A stretch of DNA of 64,000 nucleotides from a virus (lineage: Duplodnaviria > Caudoviricetes), in IMG/VR virus record IMGVR_UViG_3300011947_000001, positions 1 through 64,000 of that record; one strand, written 5' to 3'. The position numbers were made by a program, and so were the translations under genes. Numbering within the stretch: position 1 is the stretch's first letter; each line of letters begins with the position of its first letter. Below, one piece after another: positions 22,282 to 29,378 of the stretch. The notes beneath the pieces are model-generated. The model saw only the letters and a list, made by a program, of their open reading frames with translations, did not search any database and had not been told where the DNA came from.

Positions 22282-23421
22282 TTAAATATCAAACACTTCA
22301 TCTTCAGAATCATCAATTACTACCCCAACCTTATATGCAGCAACATCTTGTTCTTGTGGTGCTGCTTGAGTAGCATTGATGTTTATCCAATCTTCCAACA
22401 ATGGCATTGGGTTCTTTTTAGGGAACACAAATTCATTAGTTTCAATGCCTAAGAATCTATAAACATCTTTGGCATTGAATAACACCCATTCTTTTAAAAG
22501 TTCTGGTGTCGTTCCAACTAAATTTATACCATCTTCATGAATACCATCAATAAAATCAAATTCGCTTTGAATGATTTCACGACCTAATTCAATCATCCAT
22601 TCTTTCAATTCATTAAAGCAACGTAATCCACGTTCACTCTTTAATTCATATCCTAAAACAGCTTTGCCAAATTCAGAATGAACTTCTAATTCATCTTGAC
22701 AAATTTTTTGAACAGCTTTTCCAATTGGTTGAAACAATCCAGTTGAACAGATGGTGAATGTAATTCCAAAAGATGCCATAAACTGGATGCGTTCTAAGAA
22801 TAATGCGCAAATTACAGTTTTAAGTACAACTTCACGATATAATTCATCCGTTAAAGGGATCAAACCAGCCCAATACTGTTTACTTAAATGTAAAGCCTTT
22901 TCAAGAGTATCTGTTAAAACATTCAACCGTTTTTGTGTAGCCTTAAAATCCATGATTTCTTGAATAACTTCATCAGGATTTTCAAAGGATAACTTAACAA
23001 TTTCTGAATATGTAAACGCATGTAAATGTTCATTATCTGCAATACGAACCAGCGTAGCCCAATATTCAGTAGATGTTGAAAACGGCATTAGAATTGCAAG
23101 GAATGAGCGTGATGCTACAGAATCCGCTTCCCATTGCCATCCAATGGTTTTAATCATCTTTTCAGAAATATATTTTGGAGTGGTTTTGAATTCAACCAAA
23201 CAACGGCTATAATCGAATTCATTTTCATCCCAATCCAAGGATTTCATTTCTTTATATAATTTCCAAATGTTGGGATACTGCTTATAAATTGTATCTACTA
23301 AAGCAGGTTCCGTACCCCCAAACATTGGATAATTTTTATATTGATCAATAGTTTTAAGGCTATTAAAAATTTTTGATCTTTTCAAACCTTCTTTCTTTGT
23401 GGTCACTCTATACTCCAACAC
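22282..23421 (-). CDS. nrdB: ribonucleotide reductase class Ia beta subunit
   Basis: WEADSV, NEHLHAFTYSEI (Fe ligands and radical Tyr), LERIQFMASF, DELEVH; exact start uncertain. Confidence 0.95.
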   Translation of the reverse strand: MLEYRVTTKKEGLKRSKIFNSLKTIDQYKNYPMFGGTEPALVDTIYKQYPNIWKLYKEMKSLDWDENEFDYSRCLVEFKTTPKYISEKMIKTIGWQWEADSVASRSFLAILMPFSTSTEYWATLVRIADNEHLHAFTYSEIVKLSFENPDEVIQEIMDFKATQKRLNVLTDTLEKALHLSKQYWAGLIPLTDELYREVVLKTVICALFLERIQFMASFGITFTICSTGLFQPIGKAVQKICQDELEVHSEFGKAVLGYELKSERGLRCFNELKEWMIELGREIIQSEFDFIDGIHEDGINLVGTTPELLKEWVLFNAKDVYRFLGIETNEFVFPKKNPMPLLEDWININATQAAPQEQDVAAYKVGVVIDDSEDEVFDI

Positions 23422-24660: not shown

Positions 24661-25020
24661 TTACAGCATATCGCTTTCTAAAAACTTAGCAAACGTGAAT
24701 CCTTCATTCATCTTTTCTTCTGGAACACCAATAGAGAATGAACCGCCTTGTGGCTGTGTAAAAGTCCAACCTTTTTTGCGGAATTCAGTGAAGTCTTTAT
24801 CGATAACTGATGAAACGTTTTTAGCACTTGCACCAACACCATCTTCATGTGGTACAGCACGACCTTTAAGAATAGTCACTTCAACGTAACCATCAGCATC
24901 TTGTTTAAGTGTAACATCACCATCAGCTAATCCAAGATCAGGTTTAGTTGATTTAAGAAGCAATTCTTTAATGCGTTGTGCTTCTTTCATTGATTTATCT
25001 TTATTGATTGAATTAGCCAT
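24661..25020 (-). CDS. hypothetical late protein (119 aa)
   Basis: CTAAATA upstream (25051-25057), downstream of the nrdA terminator hairpin. Confidence 0.7.
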   Translation of the reverse strand: MANSINKDKSMKEAQRIKELLLKSTKPDLGLADGDVTLKQDADGYVEVTILKGRAVPHEDGVGASAKNVSSVIDKDFTEFRKKGWTFTQPQGGSFSIGVPEEKMNEGFTFAKFLESDML

Positions 25021-25090
25021 TTTATATAACTCTTTTTATGTATTTGTATTTATTTAGAAAAAGAGTGGCTTTTATACCACTCTTTCAGAT

Positions 25091-25597
25091 TTAGATACTA
25101 CAGCTTTCACATTCTGCTTCAGCTTCAGAAGCGTTCAGATTGATATCTTTTCCGCCTTTAGTGTTCTGGTAGTAGCCTTGCTTCACACCATACTTGTAAC
25201 GTGTATTGAAGCCTGTAATCATTTCCTTGGTTCCGACTTTTTCATCCCCTTGGATTTTACGCCAGCGGTCGGCTGAAATGCCTTGATCACACCATTTTTG
25301 GAAGATCGCATAGATCATCGTCATATTATCAGTTGGGATTTCCCATGCTGATTCATATCGATTGCGAAGTTTTGTTGAATCTGGAACTACATAAGAAACT
25401 GATTGAGTTTCATTAGTTTTGTTCAATACGATGTCACGGATCGGATATAAACCGTTCGTAGTTGCACCAGAAATAGATGAATTGTGAGATATCGTGCCAT
25501 CATCAAGAATATAATGATGTACTTCATCAACATTGATATCCATCGTGATAATACGATCATCTGTAACCTTAATTGATTTGATTTTAACAGCTTTCAT
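25091..25597 (-). CDS. nrdA: NrdA C-terminal fragment, preceded by the C-terminal half of a split intein (39 aa, 25481..25597)
   Basis: MKAVKIKSIK...MDINVDEVHHYILDDGTISHN|SSISGATTNGLYP...QKWCDQGISAD...YYQNT...CESCSI. Intein blocks F/G end in HN followed by Ser; the NrdA C-terminal CxxC is present. Confidence 0.93.
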   Translation of the reverse strand: MKAVKIKSIKVTDDRIITMDINVDEVHHYILDDGTISHNSSISGATTNGLYPIRDIVLNKTNETQSVSYVVPDSTKLRNRYESAWEIPTDNMTMIYAIFQKWCDQGISADRWRKIQGDEKVGTKEMITGFNTRYKYGVKQGYYQNTKGGKDINLNASEAEAECESCSI

Positions 25598-26603
25598 TTA
25601 CTTCGATTTCCTTTTTTAACTCATCTAAACTCTTATCACTTCTTGAACCTTTCGATAGGTTTTCAATTCGTGAAATTATTCTTAAATTTAAATAATGTCC
25701 AATAATGCTTGGATCGACATTATTTACAAAACCATCTTTAACACTATATATGTGATCTAAATGATATTCATATCCGCGCTTTTCAATATCATTAATTAAA
25801 TTACCATATAATTTAATATTAATGTTTGATATTCTATAACACTCTTTTTTATAACATATGAATGATTCAATATCACAAATCGAACCAATAGTATTTCTGT
25901 ATCTATCAATTCTATCATCCCATTTAATCTTCCACATATCACCATATTTTTCTTTGTATTGTTTAATACCAAATGCTTTTTTGGCATCAATAATACTCAT
26001 GAATTCATCAACTTCATCTTTTGAATAACCTTGATTCATCCAATAATAACGATTTGAACCTGAGTTATTTCTATTCCAATCCTTAGCCATATTGATAGAA
26101 GTTAACTCATCATATCCACGCTTCATATAATATTCTTTACACCATTTGGATCGTTCTTTTCGTTCCAATTCAGACATATTATTAACCGTACAACTAACAG
26201 ATGTTTTTTGAAACTGTTCAAACAATTCAGTTCCTTTTTCAACACCATGACGTTTAATAAACCCTTCTAAATTAGTAGCTTTTGATTTCTTTTTCTCATC
26301 AACGATTTTTTCAGCTTCATGTAACGAAATGTTATATCGGAATGCATTATATTTAATATCATATAGACTCGCTGTATTGATTGAATCAAGCGATCCACAA
26401 TAATCATTGAATGATATATAATTATCTTGCCATCCATCTTTAACTCTAATTGATGATAGATATGTATAATATCGTCTACTATCATCAAATTTATTCGAAT
26501 TAAAAAAGTTTATAACATCATCCATTTCATCAACATCGAATAAACCATCAACAAAAACTTTATCAAACCACTTGTTTGAAAACTTCTTCACCGTTTTTCT
26601 CAC
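25584..26603 (-). mobile_element. free-standing HNH-type homing endonuclease inside fractured nrdA
   Basis: C-terminal YHLDHIYSV...GHYLNLRIISRIENLSKG (HNH-like); N-terminal helical repeats (FIKRHGVEKG, YKEKYG); sits between the two nrdA ORFs. Confidence 0.8.
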
Positions 26604-26653
26604 TTTAAATATCAGCTTATATGCCTTTATTTATATATTTGTGAGAAAAACGG
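26591..26653 (-). promoter_or_regulatory. translation-sequestering hairpin with late promoter in the loop
   Basis: 13-bp perfect inverted repeat (26591-26603 / 26641-26653) whose 3' arm begins at the GTG start of the endonuclease; TATAAATA at 26628-26635 lies in the loop. Confidence 0.75.
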
Positions 26654-26665
26654 CATGTGAGTGGA

Positions 26666-29053
26666 TTATTCCATTCGCATGATTTCATCGTCTTCTGTTA
26701 AGTTAATAGCCATTTTCCATTGATACGAATCCCCCGATTTCACAAGGAATTTATGATGGTGTGTACATTTATATACAGCACCATCTTCTAATTCAATCTC
26801 AATGTAATTAGTTCTACCATTTAACCAAACATCGGTAGCTGGCTTTAACCCATCCATAGTTTCAACCATGATAGGTTCAGGTAATTTAAACCATTTACCG
26901 CCTGTCAATGGAGTAATATCTTCAACTTCTTTTTCTAAATCAGCGCCAGTTAAATTGAAAATATCTTCTAATGACATCAAACCGTTTTCAGTTTTGATAA
27001 CTTGTTCTTTTTGAACACACGACTCACTTGGCATATGTGCACAAAGTACACTGTTTAAGATGCCGCCATTGGCCTTGATCTTTTCAGATAAAGTTTTCCA
27101 ATCACGTTTATTTTCAACAGTAACCAGTTTATCCACGTTTCCGCAATATGTATCTAATGGAGTCCAGCCATCAACCCATTTAGTTTTGTACATCCATTTA
27201 GCAACACCATATTCTTTAGATAATTCTAGTGATGCATTAACAAGATGCCAGTAGTGAGTTTCAGCTAATTCATGACAGAAATCACGTCCTTCTTGCGATG
27301 AATATGACAGACCTTTCTTAGCCATCAGATGCGCTAAACCAACAATACCGATACCAGCATTCATACGTGCTTCAGCGGTTTCTTTAAGGTTCTGGAACAC
27401 ATATGATGAATTCAAGATACCAAAACGAACCATCTTCAGAACACGATAACATGAGTTATAGTATTCTTCATCATTTTTGATATTTGAAACGATGATGCCA
27501 CCAATATTACAAAGTGCGATTTCACCTGCTGTAGAACGTTCAACGATTTCATCAACCTTAGTTTCAGAACCATCATCATTAACGATTACATCATCTTCTT
27601 GCAGCTTCAATGCATGCATATCGGTTTTGCGCAAAGTATTTACACGATCAAAGTTGTAAATAATTTGTTCTTTACGTCCAGAACGGATACGGATAAAGTT
27701 TTGGCTTTCATCGTATGATTCATACAGTTCTTTGACTGATTTAAAACCAGATGTCGGCAAATCAATTTCTGAACATAAATTAGATGACCAAATCGTATCA
27801 AGGAATGGCGTATGGATGTTCATCCAGTCTGTCATATGTTCATATGTACGGCCAGTTTCAATAGCTTCAGTCATCGCCATAACAACGATCTTACGTGCTG
27901 GAACCATTGTACGTGGGAGCTTAGAAGCTAGGAATTTTTCATACAGACGTTCGAAGTAATCGTTATCGCCTGAATAAATCGCGTTATAAAGTTCTGGTGC
28001 ATCTTTATATGAGAATAAAGCAATATCTTCATTCTTAGCACATTTTTGAACAACTAAACGGTTTGAACCAAAGCTATAGTCAGAACCACGAATCTGTTTA
28101 GCCAATGGTGTGATTGGGTTTTTCAGTTTCAGTAATGTTTCAATTTCTGGATCATAAGCATTGAAATAAGCTGTACCAGCACCACCACGGCCATTCTGAA
28201 GGTTAGCAGCTAATGCAGTTGAATAAGAACGCAAGTATGGTAATTTACCTTGGTGTTCAATTAAACCACCACGAACAGAATCGCCAATTGAACGGGTTTT
28301 CAAATGGTATCCGATCCCTGCACTCATAACAGTCATCATATACGCAATATGATCCGCTGTAGCTAATGAAGGTGCTTCATCTTTGGCTTGGAAAATACAG
28401 CATGACGCATAACCGTCCAGATGTGTGCCTAGATTCACATAGTATGGCGTAGGAACGTTAATACGGTGATTTGCAAATTCTTCATAGTATGCTTTAACTT
28501 CAGCAATACGACGTTCTTTTGGTTCCTTTTCAGCAAGGGCCATAGCCATACGCATATACATGAATTGTGAAGTTTCGTATTCAATATTTTTAACACGGTT
28601 CTTCAATGCATATTTGTTGCGGTTCTGGTGAATAGCATAATGCGGATATTTAAGGTTGTAATTGTGATTGATTACTTTTTCTAGCTGTTCATATTCAGTA
28701 TCAGTATAATCAAGACAACGCATCAGGCCATCTTTAACCAGACGTGCTTGCACTTCTTTAATGGTAGGATATTCAGATGATTTATGAACCAAACGAACCA
28801 GCAAAGATGAATACAGGCGACCAGCCATCAAATTGTATTCCCATGTACGCTGCTCAAGGCATTTTTTAATCAACGATTCCTGAAGTTCTTTCGAAGTAAC
28901 TGTATTTGGTAATGTTGAAATTGCACTTGTAACGATACTTGCCCAATCGACGTTCCGACCTAGTTTTTCAGCTGCCCAAATTCCCCATCCATTTACTTTA
29001 TTTGGGTTAAAATCTTCTTTGCTACCATCTCGTTTGATAATAGTCTTAATCAT
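26666..29053 (-). CDS. nrdA: NrdA N-terminal fragment (ATP cone plus catalytic core), ending in the N-terminal half of a split intein (117 aa, 26669..27019)
   Basis: Start refined to ATG 29053 (MIKTIIKRDGS); VPTP, ASCC, SNLCSEI, EIALC, AHMPSES|CVQKEQVIKTENG...CTHHHKFLV...NLTEDDEIMRME*. Intein blocks A and B are present. Confidence 0.95.
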   Translation of the reverse strand: MIKTIIKRDGSKEDFNPNKVNGWGIWAAEKLGRNVDWASIVTSAISTLPNTVTSKELQESLIKKCLEQRTWEYNLMAGRLYSSLLVRLVHKSSEYPTIKEVQARLVKDGLMRCLDYTDTEYEQLEKVINHNYNLKYPHYAIHQNRNKYALKNRVKNIEYETSQFMYMRMAMALAEKEPKERRIAEVKAYYEEFANHRINVPTPYYVNLGTHLDGYASCCIFQAKDEAPSLATADHIAYMMTVMSAGIGYHLKTRSIGDSVRGGLIEHQGKLPYLRSYSTALAANLQNGRGGAGTAYFNAYDPEIETLLKLKNPITPLAKQIRGSDYSFGSNRLVVQKCAKNEDIALFSYKDAPELYNAIYSGDNDYFERLYEKFLASKLPRTMVPARKIVVMAMTEAIETGRTYEHMTDWMNIHTPFLDTIWSSNLCSEIDLPTSGFKSVKELYESYDESQNFIRIRSGRKEQIIYNFDRVNTLRKTDMHALKLQEDDVIVNDDGSETKVDEIVERSTAGEIALCNIGGIIVSNIKNDEEYYNSCYRVLKMVRFGILNSSYVFQNLKETAEARMNAGIGIVGLAHLMAKKGLSYSSQEGRDFCHELAETHYWHLVNASLELSKEYGVAKWMYKTKWVDGWTPLDTYCGNVDKLVTVENKRDWKTLSEKIKANGGILNSVLCAHMPSESCVQKEQVIKTENGLMSLEDIFNLTGADLEKEVEDITPLTGGKWFKLPEPIMVETMDGLKPATDVWLNGRTNYIEIELEDGAVYKCTHHHKFLVKSGDSYQWKMAINLTEDDEIMRME

Positions 29054-29198
29054 CTTAATATCTCGCTTCTCTAAACAAACTAAAGATTTATTTAATCTCA
29101 TTCTTACATATAAGAATGGAAGCGATATTAACATGACAAATATGATTAATTTTGTTTGTACATACATGAAAAAGCCACATTTTCATGTGGCCTATTCA

Positions 29199-29378
29199 TC
29201 ATTCAATTTTTTCTAATTCATCCAGAAACGTATCCAGCCGAATAAGAACCTTCTTCAATAATCGCGCTTCATTTTCTGAAACGTGTCGAAGAATAACGTT
29301 TGCCGCAATCCCGATTTTCTTGTCGATTTCAAAATATAAACTTTCAAATTCAGGGTCAATTTGTTGCTGATCACTCAT
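29199..29378 (-). CDS. hypothetical protein (59 aa)
   Basis: Manual translation MSDQQQIDPEFESLYFEIDKK...LDELEKIE*; GGTGA SD; below the ORF-track cutoff. Confidence 0.6.
   Translation of the reverse strand: MSDQQQIDPEFESLYFEIDKKIGIAANVILRHVSENEARLLKKVLIRLDTFLDELEKIE

Follow-up and report, generated by a model that had tools for sequence, protein, structure and literature searches.

The stretch of phage DNA analysed here, called the window in the following, comprises 64,000 nucleotides (nt) and represents the first 64 kb of the 82-kb IMG/VR record IMGVR_UViG_3300011947_000001 (Duplodnaviria; Caudoviricetes). According to CheckV this record is only about 22% complete; thus, the window is a fragment of a jumbo-phage genome. 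The subject of this report is its class Ia nrdA, a gene of ribonucleotide reductase (RNR), which is fractured into three consecutive open reading frames (ORFs) on the minus strand, 26666..29167, 25584..26603 and 25091..25597. The first ORF encodes the major part of NrdA joined to the N-terminal half of an intein (IntN), the second a free-standing HNH-like endonuclease. The third, 168 amino acids (aa) in length, starts with the C-terminal intein half (IntC), 39 aa ending ...TISHN, and continues directly into the remainder of NrdA (SSISGATTNG...).

The start of the first ORF at 29053 is backed by homologues; the related loci L013 and L005 begin at the equivalent Met. In the first ORF Pfam profiles identify the ATP-cone, the RNR all-alpha domain and the RNR barrel from profile position 1 to 394; the third ORF accounts for positions 442-522 of the barrel. 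The N-extein contains the thiyl-radical Cys in N425-L426-C427. An initial annotation of this DNA, made from the letters and their translations, had described an NrdA-N ORF ending in AHMPSES↓C, a 117-aa IntN and a stop codon, and a separate ORF with a 39-aa IntC ending in SHN↓S (arrows mark splice junctions throughout). The ORF list bears out both statements. The 339-aa HNH-like ORF, described as located between the halves and overlapping the start of IntC, does so by 14 nt, the ATG of IntC being inside its 3' end; on the other side a spacer of 62 nt separates it from IntN. A comparison of frames places each of the three ORFs in a reading frame of its own. Therefore, no single frameshift error generates this layout.

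Table 1. Features of the fractured nrdA locus, in window coordinates
Feature	Position	Strand	Remarks
nrdA N-extein, 678 aa	27020..29053	-	ATP-cone, all-alpha domain, most of barrel; end ...AHMPSES
IntN, 117 aa + TAA stop	26666..27019	-	Cys1 27017-27019; block B T86-H-H-H89 26753-26764
RNA hairpin, 14-bp stem	26590..26654	-	between IntN and HNH gene; TATAAATA 26628-26635 in loop
Free-standing HNH-like endonuclease gene, 339 aa from GTG 26603	25584..26603	-	no Pfam match
IntC, 39 aa	25481..25597	-	basic N-terminus; block F ...ITMDINVDEVHHY...; block G ...SHN
nrdA C-extein, 129 aa + stop	25091..25480	-	Ser+1 start SSISGATTNG; YYQN radical-transfer tyrosines; C-terminal CxxC
nrdB, RNR small subunit	22282..23421	-	downstream of nrdA, same strand; context

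Extein junction and split intein

For sequence comparisons the encoded proteins were divided into N-extein (678 aa), IntN (117 aa), HNH protein (339 aa), IntC (39 aa) and C-extein (129 aa) and searched by tblastn against 81 IMG/VR nrdA loci. In 77 of these loci the gap between N-extein residue 678 and C-extein residue 1 is zero, an extein junction which is far beyond chance. The joined exteins align with the intein-less protein P0066 over 807 residues without gaps and with 16 substitutions, and the junction sequence (...CAHMPSESSSISGATTNG...) is identical. The 90%-identity cluster of the window N-fragment comprises the intein-bearing proteins P0217, P0220 (the window protein) and P0221 next to the intein-less full-length proteins P0219, P0218 and P0066, in which 5, 7 or 12 of the 678 N-extein residues differ (98.2-99.3% identity). 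From the 77 gapless loci and these alleles it follows that the junction is exact and that the insertion is polymorphic, i.e., present or absent among near-identical alleles.

Collinearity of the exteins with E. coli NrdA, as claimed in the initial annotation, is confirmed. The NCBIfam model PRK09103 (E. coli-type NrdA) aligns at positions 622-756 with the third ORF from residue 37 onwards, and Ser+1 therefore corresponds to E. coli position 625 or thereabouts. The insertion thus separates the equivalents of the E. coli codons T624 and S625, within the strongly conserved loop MPSE(T/S)↓S. The substrate phosphate is bound by this loop; an appendage of 156 aa at this position would be hard to tolerate.

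Cys1 of IntN directly follows ...MPSES and does not vary among the four IntN sequences aligned or the more than 30 N-fragments; block B, T-H-H-H-K-F-L, is invariant throughout the same four-sequence alignment. In IntC, H38 and S40 are invariant in 18 of 18 sequences and N39 is kept in all 17 intein-bearing fragments, the sole exception being the intein-less comparator P0026. Among relatives which are just 40-60% identical Cys1, TxxH, the terminal HN and Ser/Thr+1 do not vary. All positions predicted to be catalytic in a class 1 intein are conserved in the window intein. The halves are encoded on separate ORFs, with a TAA stop after IntN and an ATG of its own for IntC.

The search with intein profiles which the initial annotation had recommended was carried out, and the models align at the splice borders. 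TIGR01445 matches residues 679-771 over its whole length (model 1-83), beginning at Cys1, with 21.6 bits (cut-off 24.5). TIGR01443 matches residues 20-40 of the third ORF and ends at Ser+1 (14.5 bits, cut-off 15.6). PF14890 is shared between the halves, IntN corresponding to model positions 39-106 and IntC to 96-155, the latter ending exactly at 25481; the half scores are 16.9 and 16.7 bits vs. a cut-off of 35.8.

A PDB sequence search with IntN detected no significant relative. Weak matches in block B alone were to DnaE and gp41-1 inteins (E 0.04-0.2; DnaE/gp41-1 chains at 0.04-0.06). Because a significant sequence relative is absent from the PDB, the window split intein is assigned to a distinct lineage. 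Like Npu/Ssp DnaE and gp41-1 it is of class 1 in its predicted chemistry and is split at the canonical point between blocks B and F; in the approximate sizes of the halves (117 + 39 aa in the window) it resembles DnaE. The Cys1/Ser+1 pair, which the initial annotation had linked to a possibly new split intein, is as such not new; it is also present in gp41-1, NrdJ-1 and IMPDH-1. The net charge amounts to -11 in IntN and to +3 in the 15 N-terminal residues of IntC.

The endonuclease and its putative expression signals

The HNH protein consists of N-terminal helical repeats and a beta-beta-alpha nuclease domain at about residues 245-339. An exhaustive HMMER search retrieved 1668 homologous representatives (50% clustering) at E <= 1e-3 and 30 at E <= 1e-30. 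D283, H284, N306, N315 and K318 do not vary in two alignments, one of 50 and one of 55 homologues. The secondary structure of the core is strand 280-284, strand 307-311 and helix 312-318. AlphaFold2 models have a pLDDT of 90.8 for the whole protein and 97.0 for the C-terminal domain and display a strand-strand-helix core. Both models match 4h9d_A best among solved structures; this Gme HNH nicking endonuclease (Z 5.0, rmsd 3.3, 65 aa) leads the next match by 1.5 Z. Foldseek with the full-length model gave no significant match. The Foldseek matches are mostly to Cas9-HNH, colicin E9, PtuB, McrA and Cap5, all with E >= 0.5. A PDB-sequence profile search with the HNH protein returned chance-level matches only, and a Pfam search of the window endonuclease yielded no GIY-YIG or Vsr match.

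We thus have moderate confidence in an HNH-like identity. Of the original assignment, the invariant motifs and the modest structural match speak in its favor, the lack of a Pfam or NCBIfam model against it. That the protein is a homing endonuclease is suggested by its genomic context. In cultured phages homologues are located inside other broken genes, namely rnlA of Acinetobacter phage 133, the tail sheath gene of Campylobacter phage CP21 and nrdA of Klebsiella jumbo phage KP13-7. In phage 133 (L085, HM114315.1) the homologue lies between the split rnlA-A and rnlA-B and overlaps both; in CP21 (L083) it is located between fragments of a gp18-like tail-sheath gene.

Two GTG codons, 26603 and 26591, are candidate starts of the HNH gene; the homologue P0067 favors the second one. 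Both are covered by the 3' arm of the hairpin in the 62-nt spacer, and TATAAATA is in its loop. The hairpin has a dG of -28 kcal/mol and a z of -5.66, and none of 200 shuffled sequences is as stable. The spacers of L013 and L014 are unrelated in sequence, yet each again forms a significant hairpin with TATAAATA. In the window TATAAATA is rarer than chance, with 7 copies vs. 13.5 +/- 3.3 expected (854, 8530, 15729, 26628, 34746, 58520 and 62085). Four of the seven precede an ORF start by 30-150 nt, as a promoter element might. IntC is preceded, about 10 nt upstream and inside the end of the HNH ORF, by the purine-rich, Shine-Dalgarno-like AAGGAA; most related loci examined also possess a Shine-Dalgarno-like sequence ahead of IntC.

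Relatives, mobility and selection

The window split intein is not unique. It is a member of a widespread family with dozens of metagenomic protein clusters, at least 13 IMG/VR contigs and relatives in the cultured phages KP13-7, CP21, CP220 and F355, where annotation is lacking or partial. Usually a homologous HNH gene is present, sometimes there is none, and sometimes the intein is a contiguous mini-intein. At least 16 IntC-NrdA-C fragments are in the protein database, and more than 30 NrdA-N fragments with IntN end at a common split point, some with extra inteins elsewhere. L013 and L014 have the three-ORF layout of the window with an HNH homologue which is about 30% identical. In L005 the IntN and IntC ORFs overlap one another without an endonuclease gene, and in P0043 IntN and IntC are joined by about 5 residues, i.e., a contiguous mini-intein occupies the window site. 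Twenty-one IMG/VR contigs match a degenerate DNA pattern made for the HNH motif; in 13 of them the gene is flanked by nrdA halves of the type ...MPSES↓C... and ...SHN↓S(S/V).... Single-protein scans of IMG/VR gave few C-fragment relatives and no HNH relatives. When 50,697 phage records were searched with the locus by megablast, the one match was just 41 nt long; hence, no close cultured relative emerges from these records.

Locus L014 (1244-6501) is doubly fractured, with a split intein and a GIY-YIG gene at NL↓C and a window-type element further downstream. In KP13-7 (L084, OP617745.1 31590-39336) NL↓C is fractured with a GIY-YIG gene and MPGE↓T with an HNH gene, the latter site being one residue upstream of the window site; the KP13-7 nrdA pieces are annotated as hypothetical proteins and as nrdA_1/nrdA_2. 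Thus GIY-YIG and HNH kinds are both found in one nrdA. With three NrdA pieces each, L014 and KP13-7 would need two trans-splicing reactions.

Contiguous inteins at the window site have been annotated in Campylobacter phages since about 2010. The mini-intein of CP220 (...PPAGN↓C...SHN↓SS...) has the same codon boundary as the window, that of F355 (...APTA↓C...SHN↓TS...) is one residue upstream. Compared with the window the Campylobacter-phage inteins are 31-35% identical in IntN and about 51-55% in IntC. The mini-inteins of CP220, vB_CcoM-IBB_35 (annotated as such) and F355 are homologous to the window intein, but are single-chain, cis-splicing and lack an endonuclease. The boundary of the window family and of CP220 reads X-(S/T/N)↓S-S with Ser+1; at the adjacent boundary KP13-7 and F355 have X↓T-S-S with Thr+1 (L084:2303-4818, L088:3955-5337, L087:2638-5334). 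CP21, of the same genus as CP220, has the fractured form in a state of decay (L086:3085-6400). Its IntN is intact; the endonuclease ORF is truncated to the helical N-terminal part, the HNH domain being lost, and a frameshift interrupts NrdA-C soon after IntC.

Beyond the 90% cluster, the intein-bearing protein closest to the window is P0033, encoded on a 28-kb Logan contig. Its NrdA-N contains an intein of about 318 aa behind residue 308, a mini-intein at NL↓C and, at its end, a window-type IntN; a single nrdA thus has three inteins.

Several features relate to the mobility of the element. Its GC content is below that of the host gene (0.28 in HNH and 0.31-0.34 in the two intein halves, IntN being at 0.34, vs. 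0.38-0.40 in the exteins), which is a foreign composition. In the related contigs L098, L104 and L106 the ratio of nonsynonymous to synonymous substitution rates (dN/dS) is 0.18-0.27 for IntN and 0.18-0.22 for HNH; ratios of about 0.2 mean that purifying selection acts on both encoded proteins in these relatives. In the same contigs dS of IntN, HNH and IntC is 0.05-0.36 vs. 1.2-2.2 in the flanking exteins. Since the cassette dS is several-fold below that of the exteins, the cassette is younger than its host genes, and the lower dS indicates a transfer of IntN-HNH-IntC as a unit.

Two pairs of relatives are mosaic. In L100 and L106 (3300009474_000081 and 3300009451_000093) HNH, IntC and C-extein are practically identical (dS <= 0.005); IntN has a dS of 0.59 and the N-extein is saturated, which places a breakpoint in or near the IntN-HNH spacer. 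Between L013 (5834-6133) and L014 identity rises from a background of about 70% to 95-100% over about 300 nt, from the C-terminal end of HNH through IntC to about nucleotide 25 of the C-extein, a sharp mark of recombination or co-conversion. In these relatives, as distinct from the window itself, the mosaics are recombination footprints of the homing type. A degenerate DNA pattern for the empty-site peptide matched nothing in viral or metagenome contigs; the putative cleavage target is known at the protein level only. The element is probably still mobile.

Proposed mechanism, alternatives and significance

The literature frame of the initial annotation, i.e., metagenomic fractured genes on the one hand and the intein-free Aeh1 nrdA on the other, holds up. 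Fractured genes were reported from the GOS metagenome by Dassa et al. (2009; PMC2677866): gp41-1 to 8, NrdA-1 to 7, NrdJ-1/2, IMPDH-1 to 3, DnaE, ligase and terminase. Like the window locus, they consist of a phage DNA-metabolism gene in two ORFs with IntN and IntC, an endonuclease ORF on the same strand in between, a hairpin upstream of the endonuclease start and a charge polarity of the halves. A hairpin, often with TATAAATA, was found upstream of 15 of 16 fractured-gene endonucleases, with the mobE mechanism being cited, and an acidic IntN and a basic IntC N-terminus were described for NrdA-2, NrdJ-1 and IMPDH-1 (PMC2677866). The NrdA split inteins of that study are directly N-terminal to the thiyl-radical Cys (NL↓C), and the endonucleases were GIY-YIG and Vsr-like only; HNH was unseen and merely predicted (PMC2677866). 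Unlike these, the window site is about 250 residues beyond NL↓C, at MPSES↓S, and the endonuclease is HNH-like instead of GIY-YIG- or Vsr-like. Our literature searches brought up no description of a split intein combined with a free-standing HNH gene; coverage was incomplete, and this is not proof of absence.

In phage Aeh1 the gene mobE splits nrdA between the equivalents of C439/E441 and C462 without an intein (Friedrich, 2007; Crona, 2011, PMC3045599). Unique tails are kept in the mature Aeh1 proteins, which form a non-covalent (a/b)2 complex (PMC3045599). Common to both systems are a class Ia nrdA in two ORFs and an HNH-type free-standing gene in between, which in Aeh1 is under hairpin and late-promoter control. 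In contrast, Aeh1 has no intein motifs, whereas the window appendages carry all intein blocks. A tblastn search (E <= 1e-5) with the window HNH protein retrieved no T4 or Aeh1 record. The mobE split is located in a loop which is extended in the window NrdA: between ...NLCSEIDLPT... and ...GEIALC... (27512-27772, minus strand) there are about 60-75 extra residues, and E. coli has 13. The extra loop is shared by P0066 and P0033 and absent from L005 and L013. As an intein remnant it was rejected; its similarity to the NL↓C mini-intein of P0033 is insignificant (E 2.6), and in P0033 it is present beside that mini-intein.

We are quite confident that the window nrdA carries a composite selfish element made up of IntN on NrdA-N, an HNH homing gene with its own start, and IntC on NrdA-C, from which we infer trans-splicing, homing and hairpin control. 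The two NrdA polypeptides would be brought together by opposite charges, acidic in IntN and basic at the N-terminus of IntC. Trans-splicing would proceed via a Cys1 thioester, attack by Ser+1 and cyclization of Asn39, and the predicted product is an 807-aa NrdA with its active-site loop restored. The need for trans-splicing in RNR assembly, which the initial annotation had deduced, is supported by the family-wide conservation of catalytic residues and a dN/dS of about 0.2 in relatives. The HNH enzyme would cut the intein-less nrdA of co-infecting phages near the insertion site, and repair would copy the whole IntN-HNH-IntC cassette, i.e., homing. In read-through transcripts the hairpin over the HNH start would hold translation down; transcripts begun at TATAAATA in the loop would set HNH translation free, as in T4 I-TevI and Aeh1 mobE.

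Several points weigh against this proposal. The source phage is uncultured, and splicing and cleavage are deduced rather than observed. All intein profile scores, those of TIGR01445, TIGR01443 and PF14890, are below the curated cut-offs. The structural Z of 5.0 for the endonuclease is modest, and its nuclease domain is recognized by no sequence profile of Pfam, NCBIfam or the PDB, even when 50 homologues are scanned. TATAAATA is a T4-type late promoter whose use in this phage is putative, and only four of its seven window copies precede an ORF. The statistics for selection and transfer are from relatives, not from the window phage. P0033 and the window are equally diverged in intein and extein (about 86% identity each); therefore, it is just as possible that the intein-less alleles lost the element recently as that the window gained it recently. 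Finally, the related locus of CP21 is visibly decaying; therefore, such loci can be non-functional.

The intein halves might not splice at all and might serve as affinity tails which hold NrdA-N and NrdA-C together non-covalently, like the unrelated tails of Aeh1 NrdA-a and NrdA-b. A split NrdA works without splicing in Aeh1 (PMC3045599), and the shortfall of the profile scores, slight as it is, points in the same direction. We consider this unlikely. Against it, Cys1, TxxH, HN and Ser/Thr+1 are invariant among relatives at 40-60% identity and IntN has a dN/dS of about 0.2 in relatives; the split is inside the conserved MPSE(T/S)↓S motif, and the contiguous forms in P0043 and CP220 must splice for an intact loop. 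Even less probable, in fact quite improbable, is that a selfish insertion turned nrdA into a pseudogene in decay and that the phage uses the host RNR. The truncated endonuclease gene and frameshifted NrdA-C in CP21 would fit, and a degeneration of nrdA in these Campylobacter phages has been suggested (Dwivedi et al., 2013). In the window, however, all three ORFs are intact, as is nrdB downstream; the NrdA motifs are all present (NLC, the YYQN tyrosines, the C-terminal CxxC), and relative to the intein-less P0066 the 807 extein residues show 16 substitutions and no indels.

Phage RNR genes often carry group I introns with homing endonuclease genes (PMC3653736), and a removal at the RNA level of a group I/II intron containing the HNH gene has to be weighed, as has the possibility that an assembly or frameshift error makes a contiguous intein with the HNH inside look split. 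We regard both as exceedingly improbable. In-frame intein halves with all splicing blocks flank the insertion. Across 24900-29300 no Rfam intron model matched at E <= 1, the three chance-level matches being to unrelated families, and the intron reading was rejected on this ground. A single frameshift in a contiguous HNH-containing intein was rejected as well, in view of the three frames, the structured 62-nt spacer and the recurrence in other contigs. With regard to an assembly artefact, which the initial annotation had named as a possible refutation, the three-ORF layout recurs in at least 13 independent contigs of diverged sequence.

The locus is a real and recurrent case of a fractured gene. 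The principle is known; the nrdA site and the HNH type of the endonuclease set this variant apart. Thus, the class of fractured genes is extended to a second nrdA site and to the endonuclease type which Dassa et al. predicted and did not observe. Together the related loci constitute a comparative series which includes the empty site, a contiguous mini-intein, split forms with and without a homing endonuclease gene, a doubly fractured gene and a decaying copy, along with evidence in the sequences that an IntN-HNH-IntC cassette moved between diverged host genes. Tentatively, and with a little less than even confidence, we suggest that the HNH family, for which Pfam and NCBIfam have no match, is a specialized gene-breaker that travels as a unit with split-intein halves, and that inteins at two adjacent nrdA boundaries, E↓T and T/S↓S, and in several states may depict the whole life cycle which Dassa et al. 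only modelled. An endonuclease family missed by current domain libraries is now identified. The mis-annotated 'hypothetical proteins' and 'nrdA_1/nrdA_2' of cultured jumbo phages such as KP13-7 are flagged, and there the predictions can be tested at the bench. A split-intein family without a close solved or characterized relative provides candidates for protein ligation tools; if the proposal is true, its diverged, co-evolved split-intein pairs may be orthogonal to the tools in current use.

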